Positions 15,280 through 64,000 of a DNA stretch of 64,000 nt are shown here, in pieces. The stretch spans positions 2,432,001 through 2,496,000 of the forward strand of contig CM000151.3 of NCBI GenBank assembly GCA_000004695.1. Direction: 5' to 3'. The stretch comes from Dictyostelium discoideum (lineage: Eukaryota). Each line of letters opens with the position of its first letter. Positions within the stretch are counted from its first letter, which is position 1. Position numbers and translations under genes: made by a program. The notes beneath the pieces are model-generated. The model searched no databases. It was not told the DNA's origin and saw nothing but the letters and a program-made list of their open reading frames with translations.

Positions 15280-16933
15280 ATGGCAATTAATTATGAAATA
15301 AATGGTAATGAAATTAAAAATTTACAAACTATCACTTACAATTATAAAGAACCAATTGAAATTGATAAAGAGTTAGAATGTATGATTTGCTTATTACCAC
15401 TTTTGGAACCAGTAGTCGAACCAAATTGCAGACAAATGGTAAACTATTATAATTTTAAAAAAAAATAATGTAATGAATGTAATTTTAATAATTTTTTTTT
15501 TTTTTTTTAAAAATGTTTTTTAGTTTTGTAAAGATTGTTTAACAAATTGGTCTATTGAAAAAGGTCAAAAAGGATGTCCATATTGCCAACAATCATTTAA
15601 TATAAAATCAGTTAGTTTACCACCAAAATTTGTAACAAATACATTAGATAGTTTATTAGTTTATTGCAATACAGATGGTTGTGAATTCAATAGTAATAGT
15701 GATAGAAATCAATTAATTCGTCGTTGTGAATATAGAAATCATTTTGAAAGAATTTGTAAAGTAATATGTATTGATTGTAATCAACAATTTACAAGAGAAC
15801 AATTAAAATTACACTCAAATGAATGTACTTCAAAATCAGTTAAATGTAATGCAAGTTCATTAATGTGTTCATGGGTTGGTCCAATTAAAGAATTGCAATC
15901 ACATGAATCAAATTGTCATTACATTGCATTATCGCCAATACTCAATAAATTATATGATAAAATCCAACAATTAGATATCAGTAATCAAAAAACCACCTCA
16001 TTTTTATTAGAAAAAATAAATTATTTAGAATCAATAATTTCATCATCATCAGCATTATCAACACCAAATTTGAGTTCTCCAATTTATTATCAACCAATTC
16101 CAACTGCTCCATTACCAGACTCAACAACAATGTATGATAATAGAAATACAACCACCACAACAACCACAACAACAACAATTTCATTGGATAAAATTACACC
16201 GGTTGAAATTAAAAAAGTAGCATCAATTGAAATTTTTAAAAATAATAGTAATAAATATGTAATTGGTAAAGTTGAATCAGGTGTTAAGAGTGTATCGATT
16301 GATGGAGATTATGCAGATACATGGCCAATTGTTAAAGGTAATTTACCAAATTCAGTTGACACATTAATATTATTAGATGGATTTAAAGAATTGGTATACT
16401 CTGTTCCAAAATCAATTAAAGTACTACACATTGGTGATATTAAAAAATCACATGCATTCTATATTCAATGCAGTTCAGTTAATGAAATTCATTTTCATGA
16501 TAATTGTAAAATTAAATTCACAAAGAATGTTATACCAGATTCAGCTAAAACAGTTCACTTTTATAGAATTAATGAACCATTAACAACTGAATCAATTGGT
16601 AAGAATGTAAAATGTCTTCATATACATGATGGATTTTCAAAATCATTAGGATATGGTGTTTTACCATCATCAATTCAAGAATTACATTTATATGATATTA
16701 AAAGACAAGCATTGTCAATACCAAGCTCAATTAAAATATTATACCTTCATAATCAATTCAATAATGAATCAATTGAATTACCTGATCAACTTGAAACTCT
16801 TTATCTTGATAACATTATCCACCCAATTAAAAATTTCCCATCATCTTTAAAAACAATTCATTTAATTAATTATAAATTTGAAGATAAAGTACCATTTCCA
16901 CCAAAAGTTAAAATTATTATGGGGACAAAATAA
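15280..16933 (+). CDS. RING finger + TRAF-type zinc finger + FNIP-repeat protein; 2 exons 15280-15438, 15524-16933; 523 aa
   Basis: Exon 1 MAINYEING…LECMICLLPLLEPVVEPNCRQM ends at donor GTAAAC (15439); acceptor T8AG at 15523. Exon 2 begins FCKDCLTNWSIEKGQKGCPYCQQ (completing a C3HC4 RING), followed by Cys/His TRAF-type fingers (CEFNSNSDRNQLIRRCEYRNHFERICKVICIDCNQQF…HSNECTSKSVKCN). The C-terminal half is FNIP repeats (LPNSVDTLILLDGFKELVYSVPKSIKVLHIG…), a repeat type characteristic of Dictyostelium. Confidence 0.75.
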
Positions 16934-17036
16934 TAAATTTTAAAATAATAATAATAAAACAATAAATAAAAAATATGTTTTGTACTTTTAAATTAATAAA
17001 TATATTTTTATTTATTTATTTATTTATTTATTTTTT

Positions 17037-18835
17037 TTATTTTCTTTTTTCAAGAATTACTTTGAATGGGTTTGGTTTTAATGTTAAACCATAAGTTTGA
17101 GTTTCATCAACTGGTTTACCATCAATTGATTTAAATTTGAAATTTAATATCATATTTGATAATGCAATATAAATTTCATCTTGGGCAAAATTACTTCCAC
17201 TAAATTATTAAAAATAAAAAATTAATATCTGAAAATATATACATGATAATACTCAAATCAATTAAGTAATTGAGTGAGAATATAATTTAGATACATTACA
17301 CGCAATTTCTTGGACCAATACTAAATGGCATGAAAGCTGGATTTGAATCAGAATTTAAAAATCTAGTTGGATCAAATTGATTTGGATTTTCAAAATATTC
17401 TTCATTTCTAGATAATGCATGATAATTAATTAAAATTTGAGCATTCTTTGGAATAAATTGACCATTATTTAAAATGATATCAGAGGTAGTTGATCTTGGT
17501 AAACCAAATGGTGATATTGGTTTATATCTTAATGTTTCTTTAAATAATGATACAACAAATGGTGTTGATTGTCTATCTGATAACAAAACTTTATTTCTCT
17601 GAGTTAAACCACCACCACCACCGCCACCATTTGATGATAATGCTGATTTAATTTCATTATAAGCTTTCTCTTGATATTCTGGATAATTAATTAACATCAT
17701 TACAATTAATTCTAAAGAAGTTGCAGAAGTATCAACACCAGCTAAAAAGAAATCACTAACTGTTGCAGAGATTGATAAAATTTGATCATCAGTTTCTGTA
17801 CCATATTCTTTAATCAATAGATCCATTAAGTCTCTTTGAACATCTGGTTTGTAAGTTTCTAAATGTTTATAAATTTTCATTTTACCAAAATTAATAACTT
17901 GATAATAATGACTTGTAAACCATTCTAAATATAAGAAATACAATGGTCTTGTTATCTCTAAAACATCAAATAAACTACCAGTACCGAAATCTTTGAATAC
18001 CTTTTGCATTGGTTTCATTAATTGTGCTAATTGACCATTATGCACATCTTCATCTTTGGAAATATCTTCATTGAAAATATATTTAAACATTGCTGACATT
18101 GTAAATTTGGTTAAATAATAACGTGGATCAAATGTTTCACCACTGGATTCAATGGTTCTCATCGATTCAATTAATACATCAACTTGATCATCCAATAATT
18201 GATAAATATGTTTTAAATTGGTCTTTCTCATTGCCTTACCAACAATCTCTTTATTATTTTTCCAATTATCACCCATTGATGCTACTGTACCATGATAAAA
18301 TGTTCCATGTTTTACTGACTATTTATTTTATTTTATTTATTTAATTAATTAATCTTATTTATTATTATTAAAAAAAAAAGAAATAAAAACTATTATAAAA
18401 AAAAAAAAAATTTTACATACTGGTATTTTTGGTCTGTCAATGAAATTGTCAAACTTGTCAACAAATAGCTCTCTTGCAATTATTGGATCACAAACAATAA
18501 CTGTATATAAGTCTGCTAAATAAATTCTAAAGATTTTACCATATTTTTCACTCATCTTTGTTAAATCAAAATGAGGTAAATTGGTTAACTGATAAATGTT
18601 GCCCAATATAGGAATTGGAAAAGGACCTGGTAATTGATTTTCATTTAATCTTTTATATTTTGAATACTTTTATTTTTATTTTTTTTTTTTTATTTTTTTT
18701 TTTTTTTTTTTTTGGTAGACTAACATGTTTTTTAAATTTTTTAGAAAATAAAAAAAAGAAAAAATAATAAAAAAATACTTACAGCATTATGTAAAATATA
18801 AATTAAAAATAGATACACAATGATGCCAAATATCA
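17037..18835 (-). CDS. Cytochrome P450 (copy 1 of 3 tandem paralogues); 4 exons approx. 18835-18787, 18665-18423, ~18310-17300, 17209-17037
   Basis: N-terminal membrane anchor [18 protein letters not shown]; proline-rich hinge [23 protein letters not shown]; ETLRYKP (ExxR); heme loop [11 protein letters not shown] split by a phase-2 intron (TGC GT|gtaatg … tttag|T) so that CVG|[21 protein letters not shown]… is restored. Stop after …VILEKRK at 17039-17037. Confidence 0.8.
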
Positions 18836-19185
18836 TTTTTTTAAAAATTGATTTTATGAAATTAAAAAAAAAAAAAAAAAAAAAAATTTAATTATAAAAT
18901 CAAAAAAAAAAACCATAAAATATGCCAAAAAAAAATAAAAAAATAAAATTAAAAAAAATAAAAATTAATTATAGTAATTTATAAATATCTTCAAAAGTAA
19001 AGATTCTTTTCAAATTGAAAAAAAAAAAAAAAACCAACCCTCTTTTTTAAAAAAAAATAAAAAAAAATCTTTATTAAATTTGAAAGTAAAAAATGAAATT
19101 CTTGAATAATAAAGTTAAATATCAAACCAATAAAAATAAGGTTATCGCGTTAACTAGTATTTTTATTAATTTTATATTTTTAATT

Positions 19186-19218
<33 letters not shown>

Positions 19219-19320
19219 TTTAATTATTTAAAAAATATATTAAAAAATTTGTTATTTCTTTTTTGAGTCACAATGAATCCTTTTTTTTGTTTTTGAAGTT
19301 AAATAGTTTTTTTTTAAATT

Positions 19321-19366
<46 letters not shown>

Positions 19367-19401
19367 TATTATTATTATAATTATTTAAATAAATATAAAA
19401 A

Positions 19402-20046
19402 TTAGATAATTCTTTTTTCAAGAGTTACATTGAATCTATTTTTAGTTTTTAGTGTGAGGCCATATTCCTCAGTTTCATCAATCTTTTTACCGTCAATTGA
19501 TTTTAATTTAAAATTTAAAAGAATATTTGAAATACAAATGTATAGCTCATCTTGAGCAAAACTTTGACCCCTATAAAAAAATAATTTAATTGATTAATTA
19601 ATTGTTTATTTTTTAATTTTTTTTAAAAATTAATTATACATACACACAACTTCTAATACCAATACTAAATGGTAAAAATGCAACATTTGATTCAACTTTT
19701 AAAAATCTTGATGGATCAAATTGTTCTGGATTTTCATAATATTCTTCATTCATTCCAAGTGCTTGATAATTAATTAAAATTTGTGCATTCTTTGGAATGA
19801 AATGACCACCAATCATACAATCCTTTGATGAAGATCTTGGTAAACCAAATGGTGACATTGGTTTATATCTTAATGTTTCTTTTATTACAGCAACTAAATA
19901 AGGTGTTGATTGTCTATCTGATAAATTAACTTTACTTCTACCATTTACAACTGTCTTTATTTCATCAAATGCTTTTTCTTGAATTTCTGGATAATTTGTT
20001 AACATCAATACCATTGATTCTAAAGCAGTTGAACTTGTATCAACAC

Positions 20047-20082
<36 letters not shown>

Positions 20083-21413
20083 AGAATATTATTTTTTTAA
20101 ATAATAATAATAATAAATACTTATAAATACAAACCTGCTAAGAAAAAATCATTAATTGTTGCCAAAATTGATAAAATTTTATCATCATTATCAGTACCAT
20201 ATTCTTTAATTAAAATATCAAGTAAATCTCTTTCAACATCTGGATCAAAGGTTTTTAAATGTTCATTATATTTCTCTCTATGATATTTCATAATATCTTT
20301 AAAACTTTGATCAAACATTTCTAAATATAAAAGATAAAGTGGTTGAGTAATATTTATGACATCAAATAAACTACCTCTACCAGCATTTTGAAAAACCTCA
20401 GACATTGGACCCATCAATTTTTGTGTATCACCTTTATTAATATCTTCATCCTCTGGAATATCATGATTGAAAAGAAATTTAAACATTGCTGACATTGTAA
20501 ATTTTGTAATATAATAACGAGTATCAAATGTTTTACCACTGGTTTCAATTGATTTCATTGATCTTATTAATACATCAACTTGTTTATCTAATAATTCATA
20601 AATATGTTTTAAATTTGTTTTTCTCATTGCTTTACCAACAATTTCTCTATTGTTTTTCCAATGTTCACCATAACTTGTAACTGTACCATGATAAAATGTT
20701 CCATGTTCAACTGACTATTTAAATTTTTAATTTTTTAAATAAAATAATTAATAATTAATAATTAATAAATAAATAATTAATAATTAATAATTAATTTTTT
20801 TTTTTTTTTTAAATTATTAATTATTTTAATTAATTATTATTATTAATTATTTATAAATTTTTTATTTTTTAAATAAAATAATTAATAATTAATAATTAAT
20901 AAATAAATAATTAATAATTAAAAAAAAAATAAATTAACACACAATTTATTAATTATTTAATTTTGATACATACTGGTTTTTTAACTCTATCGGTGAAAAT
21001 ATCAGAATTATCAACATACATTTCTCTAATTAATAATGGATCAGATACAACAACAGTGTACATGTCTGCCATATAAACCCTTAAAATATGGCCATACTTT
21101 TTAGTCATCTTTGTTAATACTCTATGAGGTAATTCTCCAAATTGATGGAGATTTCCTAAAATTGGAATTGGGGTTGGACCACATAACTCATTAACATGAA
21201 TTTTTTTATATTTTGAAATCTGATTAATTAAAATAATTATTTTAAAAATAAAAAATTAAAAAATTAAAAAATGATTATTTTTAAAAATAATAATAATAAT
21301 AATTTAGATTAATTATATTTATTTTTATTTTTTTTAATATAAAATAATAGGACTTACAGCATTATGTATAATATAAACAACAAATAATGAAATAATAATT
21401 TCAAATAAAGCCA
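19402..21413 (-). CDS. Cytochrome P450 (tandem copy 2); ~5 exons; start [19 protein letters not shown] at 21413
   Basis: Same architecture as copy 1: ORFs 20121-20627 ([23 protein letters not shown]…) and 19634-20014 (…[17 protein letters not shown]…[10 protein letters not shown]), and last exon …[54 protein letters not shown] with stop at 19404-19402. The intron after C-V is at the homologous position. Confidence 0.75.
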
Positions 21414-22155
21414 TATTTTTTAAATTACCACTTGTGTGCAAGTAATTTTTTTTTTTGTTTTTTTGTTTTTTTTTTTTTTTTCTTTTCAACAATTATATTT
21501 TTATTTTTTATATTTTTATTTATATTTTTAATTTTTGGTTTAAATATTTTTTTGTTTTTGTTTTTGTTTTTTTTTTTTTTTTTTTTTTTGTTCAACAACA
21601 GTTTAAAAAAAAAAAAAAAAAATAAAAAAAAAAAAATTAAAAAAAAAAAATTATTTTAATAATGTTTGAATTAAAACTGACAACATAGATGATTAACATA
21701 GTAAATCTATGAATCATAAAAATAAATTATTGTTTTCTCAACTGAGTAAGATGTCTCCTCACAATCTAATGTACAAAAAAAAAAAATAAAAAAAAATAAA
21801 AAAAATAAAAAAAATAAAAAAAAAATAAAAAATAAAAAAATAATACTAACACCATTATTAAAAAAAAAAAATTAAAAAAAAATTTTAAGATCCCCACACA
21901 TTTTCTATTCAATATGCACAAAAAATACACACACTTTTTTTCTTTTCTTTTTTTTTCTTTTTTTTTTTTTTTTTTTTTTTCATTGTTATTCTCAATTTTT
22001 GAGATTTTATAAAAAATAAAAAATAAAAAAAAAAATAAAAAAAATAATGAAAATAATAATAAAAATAATAAAAAATTATAATTTTTTTTGTATTGGGTTA
22101 AATTTGGACACAATAATATTCAATAAAATTTAATCCAATATTTACACGCTCACAG

Positions 22156-22208
<53 letters not shown>

Positions 22209-22252
22209 TTATTTATTATAATTAATTATTTTTTATTAAATTTTACAATGAA

Positions 22253-23566
22253 TTAAATTCTTTTTTTAATGGATACATTAAATTTATTCTTGCATCTTAA
22301 TGTAACTCCATACAATTCAGTTTCATCAATTTGTTTCCCATCAATTGAACTAAATTTAAAATTTAAAATTATATTTGAAAATGCAAGAAACATTTCATCT
22401 AATGCAAAATTTTGACCACTTAAAAAAAAAAAAAAAATTAATTTAACAATTTTTAAATAAATAATTAAAAAAAATAATAAAATAAATAATTTTTTTTTAC
22501 TTACACACAATTTCTTGTACCAATACTAAATGGTAAAAATGCAATATTTGTATCTGGATTCATAAATCTTGATGGTTCAAATTGTTCAGGATTTTCAAAA
22601 TAATCTTGATTTCTTGAAAGTCCATAATAATTTATAAAAATTTGAGCATCTTTTGGAATGAATTTATCACCAATTATAATATCTTGAGAAGTAGTTCTTG
22701 GTACACCAACAGAAGATGGTGGTTTATATCTTAATGTTTCTTTAATAAATGAAACTGTATATGGTGTAAATTGTCTATCAGATAATAAAACTTTATTTCT
22801 ACCGTTAACAGTTAATTTAATTTCATCATATACTTTCTCTTGAATTTCTGGATAATTAACTAACATCATAACCATATATTCTAATGAAGCACTACTTGTA
22901 TCAGTACCTATTTTAAATAAATTTATTAATAATTGAAATTTTTTAATAAAAAATAATAAAACTAATTTAATACAAACCAGCTAAAAATAAATCATTTATA
23001 GTTGCAATAATTGTTAAAATATCATCATCACTTCCACTATAATATTCTTTAATTAATAAATCTAATAAATCTCTTTGAATTTCTGGATTATAAGTTTTTA
23101 AATGTTGATGATATTTTTTTTTTAAAAAATTTAAAATTTTTGGATAATTTTTATCAGTATGTTCAATCCATTGATAATATAATGGTCTTGATATTAATAA
23201 AACATCAAATAAACTACCACTTCCTAAATCTTTGAAAACTTGTTCAATTGGCCCAATTAATTCAGATATTTCATTATTAAAATTTATTTCTTCATTGAAA
23301 ATGAATTTATACATTGCTGCCATTGTATATTTTTTAAAATAAATACGTGGTTCAAATACTTGTCCATCACTTTCAATTTTATTCATTGATTCAATTAAAT
23401 TATCAACTTGTTGATCTAATGAATCATAAATTAATTTTAAATTGGTTTTTCTCATTGCTTTATTAATTATATCTCTAATTTTTAACCAATATTCACCAGA
23501 AGATGCTTTTTTTTTTAAAAAAAAAAAAAAAAAAAAATTAATAATTAATTTTTTTTTTAGTTTTTT

Positions 23567-23603
<37 letters not shown>

Positions 23604-23917
23604 CTAACTTGCAATACCATGATAATGAGTTGCATGTCTTATTGAAGGTATTTTTGGTCTGTCTAGGAAATAATCACCATTGTTAACAAACATTTCTCTA
23701 ATCAAAATTGGATCAGATAATACAACAGTGTATAAATCAGCAAACCAAAATCTATAAATTCCACCATATTTTTCAGATATTTTAGTTAAATCTCTGTGTG
23801 GTAAACCACTTGTAAGTTGATATAAATTTCCTAAAATTGGAATTGGAATTGGTCCTTTTAATTCATTTTTATTTATTTTTTTAAATTTAATATACTGATA
23901 AAAATTGATTTAATTTC

Positions 23918-23961
<44 letters not shown>

Positions 23962-24121
23962 TATTTAAATTTTACCATATCTGTGTTTAGAAAAAAGTAT
24001 AATTATTATTATTATCCTTTTTTTTTTTTTTTTTTTATTAAAATTAAAGAAAAAATACAAACAGTATTATGGATTATATAAAAAATTATTAGAAACAATA
24101 TTAATTTTAAAAACTCCATTA
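22253..24121 (-). CDS. Cytochrome P450 (tandem copy 3); ~5 exons; start [19 protein letters not shown] at ~24121
   Basis: ORFs 22967-23635 (…[25 protein letters not shown]…) and 22501-22875 (…[18 protein letters not shown]…[10 protein letters not shown]); last exon via TGT GT|gtaagt … ttaag|T gives [57 protein letters not shown]. Intron positions match copies 1 and 2. Confidence 0.75.
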
Positions 24122-24292
24122 TGTTTTACTTGTAGTTTTATTGCAATAAATTTTTTTTTTTTTTTTTTTTAAAATTATATAATAGATAAAAAATAAAAAA
24201 TAAAAAAAAAAAAATTAAAAAAATTAAAAATAAAAAAATTAATTTATTTTCAAAAAAAAATCTTGGGGTCAATCCTAAAAAATTAAATGCCA

Positions 24293-24354
<62 letters not shown>

Positions 24355-24668
24355 CAATTTTATTTAATTAATCTGTGGTACGAATTAAAATCTTTATCTA
24401 TTAAAAAAACCAATTAATAATAAAAAATTAATTATATAATTAAAATACACATAAACAAATTGTTTTTTTGTATTAAATTCTTTTTTACTTCTTTAACATG
24501 TTTTTTATAAAAATAAAATATTTTTTTTTTATCATTTTTTTTTTTTTTTTTTTAATTAAAATTCTATACCACCCAATAAAAAAATCTTAATATATAATTA
24601 ACAAATGAAAACCCAATAAATATCCCTTGACAATTGTCAAATATTAATCAAAAAAAAAAAAAAAAAAA

Positions 24669-24719
<51 letters not shown>

Positions 24720-40438: not shown

Positions 40439-40445
<7 letters not shown>

Positions 40446-41289
40446 TTAATAACATTTCTAAATCTAGCATTATTAATTCCATCTAATGCTTCATTTGCTT
40501 CTTCTAATGTGAATGATTTTACCATTGGTCTAACTTGGTTATTACGAGCAAAGTTAAAGGTATCAGAAGAGTCACGAGAATCTCCAGAAGCCCAACCAAT
40601 AATTGATTTCGAACCACCAATCATTGCTATAGAACTTGCATTAAATGGTTCATTAAATGCGGCAAGGATGACTAATTTACCATTTGTACCTAAGCATTCT
40701 AATAGACCTGGTACAGCCGATGCAAATGGAGCAGTTACTAAAATACATTTGACTGAACCAATTGATTTAACTTTATCAATGTATCCATCTTTTGAAGTAT
40801 CAACATAATAATGAGCACCCAATTCTTTGGTTAATTGTTCTTTTGAATTTCCACTTGATAGAGCAATCACTTCAAAACCCATTTTCTTACAAAATTGAAT
40901 TGCCAAATGACCTAATCCACCAATACCTTGAACTCCAACTAATGCAGGTGCTTTAACTTTTTGATTTCTAAATGAATTGAATACAGTTACACCTGCACAT
41001 AACAATGGTGCACTTTCAACTGGATCCATACAATCTGGTATGGGAACTAGTGAATCTGCTGGTGCTGTCATATACTCTGCATATCCACCATCATAATGAA
41101 TTCCACAAACATAGGATTCTTTACAATGTACCCATTCATTCTCTTTACAATCTTCACATTTACCACAATGATTACCACCAAACCATCCAACTCCTACCAT
41201 TTTACCAATTCCATATTCTTCATTATTAACACCTTGTCCTAATTTATCAACTTTTCCAATTACTTCATGACCTGGTACCTTTTTTATTG

Positions 41290-42612: not shown

Positions 42613-43374
42613 TTATTCCAAAGCGGTAGCAATGTAATCAGCTCTTAATGAGTAAACTTTGTTTTCATTCCAAGTGTAGAAAACACAATCAAAACCTTTG
42701 GTGGTAATATTTCTTGGTTGGACACCAATACGGGTTTGATTGGTGGCATCAGTACAATCGATTTGATCAAAGTTGAGAGCAACCTTTGGGAGAGTAGCAA
42801 ATTCAAATTGGAATTTAACTGGGACAACAACTTCACGTTTACCTGAACCGGTATTTAAGGCACAGTTATCACCAGTGTAAATATCTGCACCAACTTGAGT
42901 GACTGAGCTTTGTACTGGTTGAGTGTAGAATTCACATCTTAATGAAATGTGACCATTCCAGGTTAATGGGTGGATAGCAATTGAACGAGCTCTAATTGGA
43001 GTATCAAAGAAATGATTAACAACAGTGTTACGATCAGTTACACCAGTAACAGCAGCACCATTACGATATTCAAACCAGGAAACATTATCTAATGAATAAC
43101 GGATTTTGTATGATGTAACCCATTGATCAGCATCACCACGACCTTGGAGAGCAACACACATAAAAGTACGTGGAACTTCACAACCAGCAACAATGTATTG
43201 GTTGGTATCTACGATTGATGAACACCAAGCTTCTGAACCATCAATGGTATTGGTACCATTGTTTTTGTAGTTTAAGGCAGAATTAAATTGAGTGTGGACA
43301 CCATTGTAATTGGTTGAGGTTCTTAAATGGCATTGAGCATTTGCGAGGAGTTGAACTAAACCTTGGGTAGACAT
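42613..43374 (-). CDS. dscA: Discoidin I (N-terminal discoidin/F5-8 type C domain + C-terminal H-type lectin domain; RGD motif), 253 aa, single exon
   Basis: Translation [116 protein letters not shown]… matches my memory of D. discoideum discoidin I. Which discoidin I chain (A vs C/D) cannot be decided from memory, so the symbol is the family founder. Confidence 0.8.
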
Positions 43375-60014: not shown

Positions 60015-60088
60015 GCCTTAGTAGCTCAGTTGGTACGAGCGTGAGACTGAAGATCTTAAGGTCGCTGGTTCGATCCCGGCCTGAGGCA
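60015..60088 (+). tRNA. tRNA-Phe (anticodon GAA)
   Basis: GCCTTAG acceptor stem pairing with CTGAGGC (one G-U), discriminator A; D-arm GCTC-AGTTGGTAC-GAGC; anticodon arm TGAGA-CTGAAGA-TCTTA with GAA at positions 34-36; T-arm GCTGG-TTCGATC-CCGGC. No intron and no encoded CCA. Confidence 0.9.
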
Positions 60089-60118
60089 AATTTTTACACA
60101 CAAAAATCCTTTGATCGC

Positions 60119-60131
60119 AAGTTCGATCTCT
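60119..60131 (+). promoter_or_regulatory. Extra B box (exB) downstream of the tRNA gene
   Basis: AAGTTCGATCTC, ~30 bp downstream of the tRNA 3' end, resembles the internal B box GGTTCGATCC. Downstream extra B boxes are a known feature of Dictyostelium tRNA genes. Confidence 0.55.
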
Positions 60132-61059
60132 GCTTTAATTTTTTTTTTTTTTTTTGATATAAATAAACTATTGTAGTATACAATTAGTACTTTATTTATT
60201 TATTTTAGGTTTTTTAGTTTTTGTGAATTTAAAATGGTATGTTATTTTAGATTAGGTAATTAATAATTAATTGGTGGTGTAATTGTTGGAATTGGTTTCA
60301 GCATTGGTTTGTGTTTATGCTCCATTCTTTTTTAAATTTTTTGATGGTTTCGGGCCATTGGGTTTCTTTTTGAGTTTTTGTGAGGTTGTTTTTAATTGAG
60401 TATTGGTTAAAGTTTGATAATGTTCTGGAATATTCCAATCTTATTAGCTTGTGCCATTTTGATTTTAATATATCATAATCTAGTGTTGTGTTGTTTATTT
60501 GGTTGTTCCAATTGTCAATTGATTGAGTTATATTGATGTCAAATAATGATTTGCATAACCATATCCATATTTGGTGAATAACTAATGAGATTATGTTCCA
60601 ATATGCATGTGTTCTGACTAGATCAAGATTTGTGTTTATATAATTCCAGTTGAACCTGTATTTTTTATATTGTGCGTTTTCTGCAAAATGAAAATTAATA
60701 TTGATAGTTGGATCTGGTTTAAATGCTTTGTTGTTTGTTTGTGGTTTATAAATGAGTGTGTATAATTTTGTTGTTTGGTTTTTTGTTAGTGACCAGTTTT
60801 TGTTTCCATTGCAATTTTTATATATAAAATATTTTAATTTGTCGTGGTTTATGAAGTTGATTGTGTGCTGACAATTGAAAAACAAATGACCATAGGGATC
60901 ATTATTCATTTCATTGTTGCAAATGGAGCAAACTTTGTTGTGTAGATGATTAATCGGAAGACATCTAGCATGGAATCTTTGCATTGTATCACGGCCTTTT
61001 GGATCTTTTAATTTTTGAATTTTGACAAATAGTTGGTCGTATGTGTATTTCCATAATAG

Positions 61060-62500
61060 TTATATTGATTGTTGGTGCGAAGTAAGAAGTAGATCTGAAT
61101 ATTTCTTTCCTATATAGTCTTTTGATTTACATTGGTGATTGTTGAGTATTGTCGAGTAGATTTCTTTGAGTGTTGGTGGTAGTGAAATATTATTTGTGGT
61201 TAATGTTTGAGTGGTTTGGTTTTTTATTAATATTGGTTGTAGGGTTTGAATTTTATCTTTTAGATATCTAATTTGAGTTGCATAGTTTTCCCATTCTTTT
61301 TTGATTTTTATAAGGAATGGAGAAGAGATTGACTTGTTGATGATTTGATCCATCCAACTTATCATGTATATTGAATTGTTTGCAGATTTATGCATTTGTA
61401 AAAATATGTTGTATATCCAAATCTTTTGAGCAGCTTGTCGTAATTGTATATTCCACATACCCCAACCACCTTCTTTTAATAGTTTTAATGATCTATCATA
61501 ACACATCAAAGGTATTTTTGCACGTGAATGGATGGTTGATGTGTTGTTTTCAATGGAATTGGTATTGAGAGTTGGTGATTCAGAATTTGCGGGAGAATTC
61601 ATAAACCATGAGATTAATTTATTAATTTGAATTTCTTCATCTTTTGTAAATTCTTCAAGGTATGATAAATATGTTATTGGTGATAGTGAGTAAGTGTTTA
61701 TGATGGTTGTTTTTGTTTTTAATGTTGTGCCACTAGTTTTCCATAGTACTAATGATTTGATCAGTGTTTTCATTGTTTCTGGTAATTTCCTATGTAAACC
61801 ATTATGATTAAAGAAATAGCCAAGAACTCTTTCTGATTGATCTTTTTTGGTTATTGGTATTCTTTTTGATTGTGGAATGTTGTTTATTAAGTGTTTATCA
61901 GTGATTTTGTGGGGGTTGATTTCTATTATTGCACTTTTGTCAAAATTTAATGATGATGATGTTGAAGCGCAGAAATTATCGAAATGTTTGATTGATTGTT
62001 GTTGTTGTTCGTAGTTGATGTTGTATGTTGTAGAGTCTTCTGCAAATTGGGTAAATTTGATTTTAATTTGTGGATTGGGTGAAATTGGTAATCCAATTAT
62101 TGTATTGTCTGCATTTATTGTTCTTGCTAATATTTCAATTACAATTACAAATAAAGTGGCTGAGATTGGGTCACCTTGTTTTACACAACTTTTAATATCG
62201 AATTTTCTAGTCGTTTTACCATTAATTGAAATTTTTGCTTGTGAGTCAGATAAAAGCTTGTGGATTATATTTATTAATTTTATTGGTATACCAATATGAA
62301 TTAATGTTCTTTTAATACTATCGTGAGAATCAAATGCTTTAAAGAAGTCAAATAGTGTGATGTTACCAGGGAGGTTTTTAGATTTGAGGTAGTTGATTAA
62401 TTCATTGATGTTGATGATGTTGTCTATGATAAATCTGTAGGGTACGAAACCAGTTTGGTTGATGTTGACGATGAAGGGAAGTATTCTCAGAAGGTAATTT
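61060..62500 (-). CDS. Reverse-transcriptase domain segment of the retrotransposon ORF2
   Basis: Continuous minus-strand frame containing RT motifs 1-7 (…QTGFVPYRF…FDFFKAFDSHD…GDPISATLF…FAEDSTTY…). Confidence 0.6.
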
Positions 62501-63549
62501 TTGCATCTTTTGATCTTTGTTTAGTATTGCTGATAGATACTTATAGGTATTTCTCCTTTATTTGTTTGTGTGGTTTTGATGTAATTTGTTTTTGTTACAT
62601 ATAATATTGTATTCAGCGATGCATTGTTTTTCAAGATGTTTAAATTTTGCTGCTTTTTCTAATAGTATTTGTTTTGCACGTTGAGTTTGTTTGTCTTTGT
62701 TATATTGATAGTTTTTTAGAGTTTTAATAATTTTTGATTTTACTTTTGACCAATTTGTAAATTGATTGATTGATGTGTTATTGTGATTAGTTATTAAATG
62801 ATTGATAATATTGATTGCTTCATGGTCATTTGCAGTACCAGGTGATAATATCCATCTTTTCTTATGTTTATTTATTTGAAAAGGTGAAGAAATTGTTGTT
62901 GATACTGGATTATGATCTGATAATGAAGATGGAATTTGGTGGACTTGTGTATAAATTTTCAGGGTCTATTCTATTGTAATGAGTATATATTCTATCTAAT
63001 CTGTTGCCATGTGTATGAGTTGGAGTGTTTTTAAATTCACCTTGATCAATTAGATGGTGTTGGTATGTGTAGGATTGGATAATATCGTCTAATAGTGAAT
63101 TGTCGTTGTGGATACAGTTGAAATCGCCTGCGATAATAGATACATGTTGGGATTGGTTTGGTATTGGGTTTGTTGAGTGGTTGTGGAGAAGTGTTTGTAG
63201 TGAAGTTGTTATGAATTCTTTTTGATGGTATCATTTGATGCTGGTGCATAAATTCCAAGAATACCAATTGGTAATTGATTTGGAAATATAACGTCTGCTA
63301 AAATAGCTCTACCATCAATTGTTGATATGTGTTTGAGTTTGAGTGTGTTTGGGTTATGCTTTAATGTTTTTGTCTTAGTAAACAAAGGAAAACAATTAAT
63401 ATTATAAGAATGCTGTAAAGGTCAATCAGAACTAACTTTATTTTTTTTTAGTTTTTACAATTTTCGACCGAGAAGTTTCGAATGAAAACTCTAAATTATA
63501 TAAAACTAAATAAATTATTATTTTAATTATTATTGTTTAATTGTAATCA

Positions 63550-63882
63550 TTACTGTAACAACTGGTGGTCGGTATCATCAGTGTTAATTTTTCCTAATGA
63601 TTTCTTTATTGTGTTGGTTATTGCTGCTGAAGTTATTGGTGTTGTAATGTTGGGTGATGATGGTGGTGTCGTATGATTATTCAATTGTTGTTGAGATTGT
63701 TGATTTATTAATTGAATGTGTTGTTGAAGAAGTTGATTTTGTTTATCTATTACCTGCTGCTGTTCCCTTATCTGACGTTGCTGTTCATTGAATGTTGATA
63801 CCTGTGGTTGTTGCTGTTGTTCCTCATTATCCTGTTGTTGCAATTCATCATTATCAATATCTTCGTTATTATTAGTTGACAT
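63550..63882 (-). CDS. Retrotransposon ORF1-like protein (Q-rich, 110 aa)
   Basis: MSTNNNEDIDNDELQQQDNEEQQQQPQVSTFNEQQRQIREQQQVIDKQNQLLQQHIQLINQQSQQQ…, sitting 5' of the APE/RT ORF on the same strand. Confidence 0.45.
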   Translation of the reverse strand: MSTNNNEDIDNDELQQQDNEEQQQQPQVSTFNEQQRQIREQQQVIDKQNQLLQQHIQLINQQSQQQLNNHTTPPSSPNITTPITSAAITNTIKKSLGKINTDDTDHQLLQ

Positions 63883-64000
63883 TCTCTTAAAATAAATTAT
63901 TTAATAAAATTTAATTATTTATTTATTCTATTATTAAAGTAAAATGATTAATTATTTAAGAAATAAATGTACACAAAATTAATTAATGACCGTAGCCCTA

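Follow-up and report, generated by a model that had tools for sequence, protein, structure and literature searches.

The 64-kb stretch of Dictyostelium discoideum AX4 chromosome 2 analysed here (the window, in whose coordinates all positions are given) carries on its minus strand, at 17037–24119, the annotated cyp508A3-cyp508A1-cyp508A2 tandem array of cytochrome P450 genes. We built spliced models by hand, and over their full length their products agree at every residue with annotated CYP508A3, CYP508A1 and CYP508A2, which an exact-sequence look-up returned as 'Probable cytochrome P450 508A1/508A2/508A3'. The genes and the exons of the spliced models are as follows.

22253..24119, minus strand: cyp508A3 (DDB_G0273047, from the supplement of PMC6524965; XP_001134606), 479 aa, 5 exons, exact protein match
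24119-24063, 23894-23609, 23505-22978, 22907-22505, 22418-22253, minus strand: exons of cyp508A3
19402..21414, minus strand: cyp508A1 (DDB_G0273943; XP_644330), 484 aa, 5 exons, exact protein match
21414-21358, 21219-20974, 20714-20135, 20046-19644, 19570-19402, minus strand: exons of cyp508A1
17037..18836, minus strand: cyp508A2 (DDB_G0272604; XP_644331), 493 aa, 4 exons, exact protein match
18836-18783, 18666-18421, 18318-17300, 17199-17037, minus strand: exons of cyp508A2

The models, together with full-length matches to PF00067, bear out the initial annotation of three full-length P450 genes lying head to tail on the minus strand, with coordinates correct to within 2 nt; tblastn found no further P450 copies within the 64-kb window. 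The matches (E = 3.3e-94 for CYP508A3, 8.6e-104 for CYP508A1 and 3e-90 for CYP508A2; bit scores for the three proteins of 303.7, 348.3 and 316.7, where the gathering cut-off is 22.8) run from profile positions 2-3 to 445-461 of 462. Each protein possesses the heme-thiolate loop FSIG(I/P/T)R(S/N)CVG, the ETLR and F(D/E)P(S/T)RF motifs and the I-helix motif AG(V/T)DTS, preceded by an N-terminal hydrophobic anchor and then a GPxPIPILGN hinge, the arrangement that marks a microsomal-type P450. The anchor motif said to be common to the three genes is confirmed as YI(I/L)HN(A/T).

Names and annotations for these genes existed already, and the array represents a textbook case of lineage-specific expansion among P450s. 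Under Nelson's nomenclature, P450s with more than about 40% identity belong to the same family and those with more than about 55% to the same subfamily. Protein identity is 65.3% between A1 and A2, 60.5% between A2 and A3 and 59.2% between A1 and A3, so that the three genes form one subfamily, and the family assignment suggested beforehand as a check resolves, through the exact match to named sequences and these identities, to CYP508 subfamily A. Each of the three proteins has two AX4 GenBank accessions. A segment of approximately 750 kb on chromosome 2 is documented in the literature as duplicated in strains Ax3/Ax4; the array lies inside this segment and the reference genome therefore holds a '-1' and a '-2' copy of each gene, a naming used in the literature. 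Our locus is one of these two copies and does not differ from the described CYP508A1/A2/A3 of D. discoideum.

The closest solved structures are vertebrate CYP17A2 (4r20), CYP2B4 (5em4) and CYP2C5 (1dt6) (E 7e-47 to 5e-46) and, with them, CYP1B1 (E about 1e-46 for the group); all of the top PDB matches are microsomal members of CYP17, CYP2 or CYP1. Vertebrate CYP2-clan enzymes have domain order, motifs, N-terminal anchor and proline hinge in common with the CYP508A proteins, but belong to other CYP families, and identity is only ~27-30% (CYP1B1), which gives no ground for inferring substrates. Each gene would encode a CYP2-clan-like microsomal (class II) monooxygenase with an N-terminal membrane anchor. 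We infer that the proteins reside in the ER, where CYP508A1-A3 would receive electrons from NADPH-P450 reductase (RedA/RedB) and hydroxylate small lipophilic substrates. The CPR genes redA and redB are both present in D. discoideum (PMC2257935, PMC6524965), and the RedA paper (PMC2257935) has no CYP508-specific content.

Pseudogenes and partial genes make up 13 of the 54 putative CYP genes of D. discoideum (PMC6524965), and CYP508A2 contains a variable Gly/Asn low-complexity insert, both of which could fit decay of one or more copies into non-functional sequence. Against this, none of the three reading frames is interrupted, the splice sites are canonical GT..AG throughout and no catalytic motif is missing, and the genes are entered as 'Full_length' CYPs in supplementary file 2 of PMC6524965. 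Furthermore, CYP508A3-2 has been detected as a regulated transcript, up-regulated after rnp1A knock-down, in what is the sole mention of the three genes in the searchable literature. Orthologue dN/dS, estimated by NG86 in an AT-rich genome where dS is near saturation, is 0.10, 0.18 and 0.17 for the three genes. Purifying selection acts on each of the three, and a decaying copy in the array is very improbable.

The gene models also permit a comparison of intron positions, which the initial annotation had described as conserved across the array. The introns that bear on this are the following.

17200..17299, minus strand: A2 heme-loop intron, phase 2, TGC GT|GTAATG...TTTAG|T, Cys codon 17304-17302
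19571..19643, minus strand: A1 heme-loop intron, phase 2, TGT GT|GTATGT...TATAG|G, Cys codon 19648-19646
22419..22504, minus strand: A3 heme-loop intron, phase 2, TGT GT|GTAAGT...TTAAG|T, Cys codon 22509-22507
23506..23608, minus strand: A3-specific intron 2, phase 1, after codon 114; same position in D. firmibasis A3

As had been claimed, every gene has a phase-2 GT..AG intron right after TG(C/T) GT, the Cys-Val of FSIGxRxCVG, and a phase-0 intron also directly follows YI(I/L)HN(A/T) in all three. The intron placed after a 'KMxxxTNLK' motif does not exist: the actual motif is KAMRKTNLK, which lies mid-exon in each gene, and the misreading probably arose because open reading frame 20121-20627 begins at that Met. 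Written as alignment column and phase, the introns are (19,0), (102,0), (295,1) and (441,2) in A1; (19,0), (102,0) and (441,2) in A2, where the I-helix intron is missing; and (19,0), (114,1), (295,1) and (441,2) in A3. Conservation of position therefore holds throughout the array for (19,0) and (441,2), but not for the second and I-helix introns.

The departures in A2 and A3 are copy-specific and are matched in D. firmibasis, where A2 likewise has no I-helix intron and the same A3 intron-2 state is fixed. The second intron of A3 lies 12 codons (37 nt) 3' of the ancestral phase-0 site, within homologous, ungapped coding sequence, and the ancestral site itself is intron-free in A3; the phase-0 intron is found there in A1, A2, A4 and the D. 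purpureum genes 43840 and 83390. The four introns of A1 type all occur in DICPUDRAFT_43840, the nearest relative recovered from D. purpureum, and a relative of only 31% identity still has intron 1. Hence, the shared introns are inherited and no sign of recency, the heme-loop intron being a marker of the 508A lineage, and A1 retains the ancestral four-intron structure. After duplication, A2 would have precisely lost its I-helix intron, and A3 would have lost ancestral intron 2 and acquired another 37 nt downstream.

Trees were constructed by neighbour-joining only, with bootstrap, and included 10 D. purpureum genes. CYP508A1-A4 form an exclusive clade (94% bootstrap) in which A1 and A2 are sisters (91%), while the branching order of A3 and A4 has 50%. 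Each array gene falls into its own orthologue group at 100% bootstrap across D. discoideum, D. citrinum and D. firmibasis; from D. dimigraforme an orthologue was recovered for A1 only. CYP508A4 and DICPUDRAFT_43840 belong to the same 508A clade as the array (49-57% identity). CYP508A4 differs in being unlinked to the array, without I-helix and heme-loop introns and with a private intron (72,2); DICPUDRAFT_43840 keeps all four intron positions of A1 but stands alone on its contig, outside any array. A1 and A2 would thus be sister copies, and A4 a fourth paralogue of the same burst, now elsewhere in the genome.

The array had been read as a recent local triplication. A local triplication, in tandem, of a single P450 lineage is upheld, the three genes being neighbours on one strand and members of one CYP subfamily, and spacer A/T runs reaching 41-44 nt could be taken to mean that unequal crossing-over through these homopolymers is still in progress. 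'Recent' does not stand. Orthologue identity is 86-91% vs 59-65% among paralogues, and paralogue dN (0.25-0.30) is 3.5–6 times the orthologue dN (0.05-0.08) between D. discoideum and D. firmibasis. The same three genes, in identical order (A3-A1-A2-FNIP) and with the same copy-specific intron changes, occur in D. firmibasis, and in D. citrinum, D. cf. discoideum and a wild D. discoideum assembly the three carry consecutive locus tags. Recent tandem duplicates are expected to be closer to each other than to their orthologues and to have alignable non-coding DNA, and these genes show neither. The initial annotation had offered identity below 40%, or introns that do not coincide, as grounds for abandoning a recent origin; identity lies well above that figure, whereas intron positions coincide only in part.

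The spacers and the one conserved block within them are as follows.

18837..19401, no strand: A1-A2 spacer, 565 bp, GC 0.10; 21% of bases in A/T runs of at least 10 nt, longest 41 nt
21415..22252, no strand: A3-A1 spacer, 838 bp, GC 0.125; 24.5% in A/T runs, longest 44 nt
21664..21709, minus strand: conserved non-coding island, ~250-295 nt upstream of the cyp508A1 ATG, 85% identity to D. firmibasis

Described earlier as long homopolymers, the spacers have 21-25% of their bases in A/T runs of at least 10 nt. Elsewhere in the 64 kb, which holds 266 such runs in all, low-GC windows of 500 nt average 17%, with a 90th percentile of 28%; spacer density is within the normal range. With ordinary homopolymer content, unchanged gene number and order in D. 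firmibasis and no sign of exchange, the proposal that homopolymers promote unequal crossing-over here is unsupported. In every coding window the orthologues resemble each other at least as closely as the paralogues do, and spacer-to-spacer comparison revealed no paralogous similarity in non-coding DNA beyond low complexity. We considered A1/A2 gene conversion at columns 102-180 (85% nucleotide identity) and rejected it: dS is low there in every pair, orthologues included, and orthologue p-distance (0.07-0.11) is below that of paralogues (0.15-0.18). A recent triplication with continuing unequal crossing-over is accordingly a very slight prospect, on a par with pseudogene decay.

The island at 21664..21709 is the only conserved block that is not low-complexity in a comparison of three spacers, and is a candidate promoter element. 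Neither a relic fourth copy nor a pseudogene was found in the spacers by tblastn; an exon-1-like match of 67% identity at 21829-21900 (family D18) is of low complexity and was taken as chance. Scans with Rfam gathering thresholds and ARAGORN found no RNA genes in the spacers, and returned only a tRNA-Phe at 60015-60088.

The opposite displacement in time, a triplication predating the D. discoideum / D. purpureum split with its orthologues among unrecovered D. purpureum genes, is unlikely, though it deserves more weight than a recent origin. Supplementary file 4 of PMC6524965 gives the names CYP508A1_Dp (43840, 54607), A2_Dp (26606, 97847), A3_Dp (83390) and A4_Dp (156647, 87778), of which 26606, 156647 and 54607 are absent from our tree, as is 41061 (all four CYP508A/B-like in that paper); support for 43840 as nearest outgroup is only 58-61%. 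On the other side, none of the 10 recovered D. purpureum genes falls inside the A1-A4 clade, and 43840 retains the unmodified ancestral intron set. Genes 97847, 83390 and 87778 show 39-46% identity to each of A1-A4 and lie outside their 94%-bootstrap clade, so their names reflect best match and not orthology. We favour a history in which one four-intron CYP508A gene would have been locally duplicated to give A1, A2 and A3, after the D. purpureum split and before that of D. firmibasis, D. citrinum and D. dimigraforme, as judged from recovered sequences; the post-D. purpureum bound is provisional. The array would have been stable since, every copy being kept by purifying selection.

Divergence between the copies was examined in the substrate-recognition (SRS) regions, with limits after Gotoh (1992) set on an alignment to CYP2B4. 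The earlier description of these regions as divergent is right for the F-G region (SRS2/3), which is a divergence hotspot with only 1-4 of 13 SRS3 residues identical between copies, but not for SRS4 and SRS5, which are well conserved. The F-G region forms the roof and entrance of the P450 active site, and because divergence is concentrated there CYP508A1-A3 probably have different substrates or a different regio-selectivity, a pattern that would amount to sub-functionalisation. Positive selection on the SRS was considered and is not claimed. Of the pairwise checks proposed beforehand, identity is 59-65% and NG86 dN/dS is 0.50-0.85 in SRS codons (~92) vs 0.37-0.54 elsewhere, never exceeding 1 and with dS near saturation. 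As well-conserved paralogues that diverge mainly in the F-G region, the three are reasonable candidates for substrate screening.

Pfam searches of flanking open reading frames, in which genes with small exons could be missed, turned up no scaffold-forming enzyme of the kind expected beside a P450 in a biosynthetic gene cluster, such as a terpene synthase, PKS or NRPS. What they identified next to the array was a gene with FNIP repeats, one with CBM20+GDPD, an HPS5-like propeller and domain-less frames. In D. discoideum, the role of CYP521A1 has been demonstrated in the DdTPS8-CYP521A1 gene pair, so terpene tailoring is possible for dictyostelid P450s (PMC6524965). That pair has a terpene synthase partner, whereas the CYP508A array has none in the Pfam scan. 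The CYP521A1 reaction is the only one demonstrated among 41 intact D. discoideum P450s, and CYP508C1 is inactive on discoidol (PMC6524965). The CYP508 family is functionally still an orphan, and the array matters little beyond bookkeeping.

Taken jointly, the observations are very probably explained by the known cyp508A array, encoding microsomal P450s, with intron changes after duplication, stability and purifying selection. The comparison places the duplication burst in time, provisionally after D. purpureum and before D. firmibasis, with stability afterwards, and two gene models predicted automatically in other species should be corrected. The evidence leaves evenly poised a further reading, in which A3 intron 2 would be a dated intron relocation (loss and nearby gain, or reverse splicing into a neighbouring site) within a 508A intron-turnover series and, separately, the F-G region would record substrate divergence. 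If true, the CYP508A burst, with relocation in A3, loss in A2 and 3'-intron losses in A4, would constitute a small natural intron-turnover series in Dictyostelia.

Spliced models with explicit GT..AG boundaries, built on the minus strand of 16500-24700, yield three tandem, same-strand cytochrome P450 genes, essentially where the initial annotation had placed them:

24119..22253, minus strand: gene C, cyp508A3 (A3), 5 exons, 479 aa
21414..19402, minus strand: gene B, cyp508A1 (A1), 5 exons, 484 aa
18836..17037, minus strand: gene A, cyp508A2 (A2), 4 exons, 493 aa

Their introns are 70-259 nt long with a GC content of 3-16%, in a window of about 20% GC packed with A/T homopolymers, the hallmark of dictyostelid DNA. 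Pfam P450 matches are full-length for all three proteins (E 3e-90 to 9e-104), and an exact-sequence look-up found each model identical to an annotated D. discoideum AX4 protein of the 8,484,197-bp chromosome 2: 'Probable cytochrome P450 508A1' (XP_644330, gene B), 508A2 (XP_644331, gene A) and 508A3 (XP_001134606, gene C). These exact matches assign the genes to subfamily 508A, the family having been left for assignment in the initial annotation. The locus is already annotated and named, and DDB_G0273943, DDB_G0272604 and DDB_G0273047 are given as full-length CYPs (supplementary file 2 of PMC6524965). Two AX4 GenBank accessions exist for each protein, and names such as 'CYP508A3-2' occur in the literature; both fit the 750 kb duplication on chromosome 2 of the Ax3/Ax4 strains (PMC2643946).

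No other P450 was found in the 64-kb window by tblastn. Pfam scans of the flanking ORFs gave nothing to suggest a biosynthetic cluster: no terpene synthase, PKS or comparable partner came up. Other features of the window are as follows:

40439-41200, minus strand: zinc-type alcohol dehydrogenase fragment, 1.4 kb from the discoidin-like ORF
42613-43374, minus strand: 253-aa ORF with F5/8 type C and H-type lectin domains, the discoidin architecture
60015-60088, plus strand: tRNA-Phe(GAA) gene
60298-60984 and 61060-61773, minus strand: ORFs without a Pfam match, about 210 bp downstream of the tRNA gene

The ORF block beyond the tRNA gene (within 60015-64000) has a GC content of 0.29 and a strong GC skew (+0.32 to +0.35), and presumably resembles a tRNA-gene-targeting, TRE3-like retrotransposon.

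The three genes are local copies of a single P450 lineage, but the triplication is not recent, as had been proposed. Protein identity is 65.3% for A1-A2, 60.5% for A2-A3 and 59.2% for A1-A3, above the 40% taken as a lower limit in the initial annotation, and coding sequences are 73-75% identical. Homologue searches recovered the three genes under consecutively numbered locus tags, RB653_010520-22 in D. firmibasis, ACTFIU_009886-88 in D. citrinum, ACTFIY_009164-66 in D. cf. discoideum and ACTFIW_011843-45 in a wild D. discoideum assembly, and D. firmibasis shares the order of the window: A3, A1, A2, a convergent FNIP/RING gene and a CBM20+GDPD gene. In neighbour-joining trees (200 bootstraps) the A1, A2 and A3 orthologue groups each have 100% support, A1 and A2 are sisters (86-91%), and all three groups join the unlinked paralogue CYP508A4 (A4) in a clade that holds D. 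discoideum-complex sequences only (94%). Paralogue dN (0.25-0.30) exceeds dN between D. discoideum and D. firmibasis orthologues several-fold (0.049, 0.078 and 0.075), so the duplications are several times older than the split of these species; the orthologue dN/dS (0.10, 0.18 and 0.17) places all three copies under purifying selection.

Several D. purpureum genes have been labelled CYP508A1-A4_Dp (supplementary file 4 of PMC6524965). None of the ten D. purpureum CYP508 genes sampled nests inside the A1-A4 clade, and 'A2_Dp' (97847), 'A3_Dp' (83390) and 'A4_Dp' (87778) are just 39-46% identical to each of A1-A4, hence these labels denote best matches, not orthology. The nearest outgroup is DICPUDRAFT_43840 (49-56% identity, support 58-61%). 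Provisionally, on a tree built without 26606, 156647, 54607 and 41061, the duplications would postdate the D. purpureum split.

Two automated models of relatives look wrong. In the 467-aa A3 model of D. firmibasis, RB653_010522 (7213-9326 of L001, the sequence carrying the locus), exons 1 and 2 are mis-spliced; re-splicing gives an open 479-aa model with D. discoideum-like junctions, 86% identical to AX4 A3. The 948-aa D. citrinum protein KAN0026147.1 apparently joins two neighbouring genes, A1 and A2, into one, which explains why the two share a single 90% cluster.

The proposal that homopolymer spacers promote unequal crossing-over finds no support: their A/T-run content is ordinary for the window and no exchange was seen. 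The spacers (565 and 838 bp) have 21-25% of bases in A/T runs of at least 10 nt, the longest being 41 and 44 nt; low-GC 500-nt windows elsewhere in the 64 kb have a mean of 17%, with 28% at the 90th percentile and 30% at most, and the longest of the 266 such runs lie outside the two spacers. Direct-repeat analysis confined paralogous similarity to coding segments (60-83%), non-coding similarity being low complexity throughout, and in no sliding window did paralogues come closer to each other than the corresponding orthologues do. Only at columns 102-180 is the likeness of A1 and A2 unusual (85% nt); exchange there was rejected, as dS is low for orthologues and paralogues alike, and orthologues are closer still. 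Gene number and order are the same in D. firmibasis and the tags are consecutive in three other assemblies, so that nothing speaks for ongoing exchange, and the homopolymers have no special role at this array. Across three spacers compared, the sole non-low-complexity block conserved with D. firmibasis is at 21664-21709 (minus strand; 85% over about 45 nt), some 250-295 nt ahead of the cyp508A1 ATG, a candidate cis-regulatory element.

Each protein has an N-terminal hydrophobic anchor of about 17 residues followed by a GPxPIPILGN hinge, and the I-helix AG(V/T)DTS, ETLR, F(D/E)PxRF and a heme loop with its Cys. From established P450 biochemistry, all three would be ER-anchored class II monooxygenases, with electrons probably supplied by NADPH-P450 reductase; redA and redB are present in D. 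discoideum (PMC2257935, PMC6524965). Among its 54 CYP genes (41 intact, 17 families), function has been demonstrated for CYP521A1 alone, and CYP508C1 was inactive on discoidol (PMC6524965). The sole specific literature mention found is of CYP508A3-2, listed with other P450 genes as up-regulated upon rnp1A knock-down.

Among solved structures, the best matches are microsomal CYP2-clan enzymes: zebrafish CYP17A2 (4r20, 7e-47), CYP2B4 (5em4) and CYP2C5 (1dt6). Substrate-recognition regions (SRS) were mapped by alignment to CYP2B4 (chain in native numbering; Cys436 aligns to A1 Cys428), with approximate limits said to be those of Gotoh (1992). Within these approximate limits pairwise identity is 54-64%, against 60-66% elsewhere. 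The divergence noted in the initial annotation holds for SRS3 (1-4/13 identical) and SRS2 (5-6/11), which drive the difference and lie in the F-G region (columns 181-255), the least conserved stretch of the three-way alignment, but not for SRS4, conserved in all pairs (12-15/19); SRS5 matches at 11/13 positions between A1 and A2 and at 7-8/13 against A3. The enzymes probably differ chiefly in active-site roof and entrance. NG86 dN/dS is higher in the SRS (0.50-0.85) than elsewhere (0.37-0.54), but it stays below 1 throughout and comes from about 92 codons, and we therefore make no claim of positive selection. Exon 3 of cyp508A2 carries a (GGN)7 run (17608-17628) encoding a poly-Gly insert whose length and sequence change from one D. 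discoideum strain to another (e.g. SSNDNNGGGGLTQ, SSNDNNGGDGGGLTQ); the insert differs in D. citrinum and is missing from D. firmibasis. While the rest of the enzyme is constrained, this low-complexity surface loop evolves fast.

Introns of the three minus-strand genes, as (alignment column, phase), with second-intron and heme-loop Cys codon coordinates

A3: (19,0), (114,1), (295,1), (441,2); second intron 23506-23608; Cys codon 22509-22507
A1: (19,0), (102,0), (295,1), (441,2); second intron 20715-20973; Cys codon 19648-19646
A2: (19,0), (102,0), (441,2); second intron 18319-18420; Cys codon 17304-17302

Conserved intron positions had been claimed throughout; (19,0) and (441,2) are indeed common to all, but the second intron of A3 and the I-helix intron, which A2 lacks in its AG|G codon, depart from this. 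In each gene the phase-2 heme-loop intron directly follows TG(C/T) GT, which encodes the Cys-Val of FSIGxRxCVG, and the anchor motif YI(I/L)HN(A/T) is likewise borne out, directly followed by a phase-0 intron. No intron follows 'KMxxxTNLK': the true motif, KAMRKTNLK, is exon-internal in every gene, and the supposed boundary was probably suggested by the mechanical ORF 20121-20627, which starts at its Met. Intron 2 of cyp508A1 is 259 nt in AX4 against 78 nt in D. firmibasis, the excess being AT-rich tandem repeats (periods 7, 22 and 29) at 20736-20937.

D. purpureum 43840 has introns at (19,0), (101,0), (293,1) and (426,2), exactly the A1 pattern; A1 has thus retained the ancestral structure, and the heme-loop intron, being inherited, does not point to recent copying. 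Intron 1 recurs, with column and phase unchanged, in a Tieghemostelium lacteum relative, a 508B-like gene and a 31%-identical P450, all three lacking the heme-loop intron; intron 1 is the older. In A4 (6001-7873 of L003, from a D. discoideum strain assembly) introns 1 and 2 remain, the two 3' introns (I-helix and heme-loop) are lost, and a private intron stands at (72,2), in phase 2 after codon 72; such 3'-biased loss is the pattern that reverse-transcript-mediated intron loss would produce. D. purpureum 83390 also keeps introns 1 and 2 without the heme-loop intron, its third intron lying about 5 codons downstream of the A1 I-helix site.

The intron loss of A2 is common to D. firmibasis A2, as is the intron-2 shift of A3 to D. 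firmibasis A3 (L001 7685-8059) once RB653_010522 is re-spliced. A3 lacks the ancestral phase-0 intron 2 and has instead a phase-1 intron 12 codons (37 nt) downstream of the A1/A2 site, in ungapped homologous coding sequence within SRS1. This looks like an intron loss with a nearby gain, or a relocation, which would have occurred after A3 arose by duplication and before D. firmibasis split off. This 37-nt relocation, fixed in two species, is the sole mildly unusual feature of the locus.
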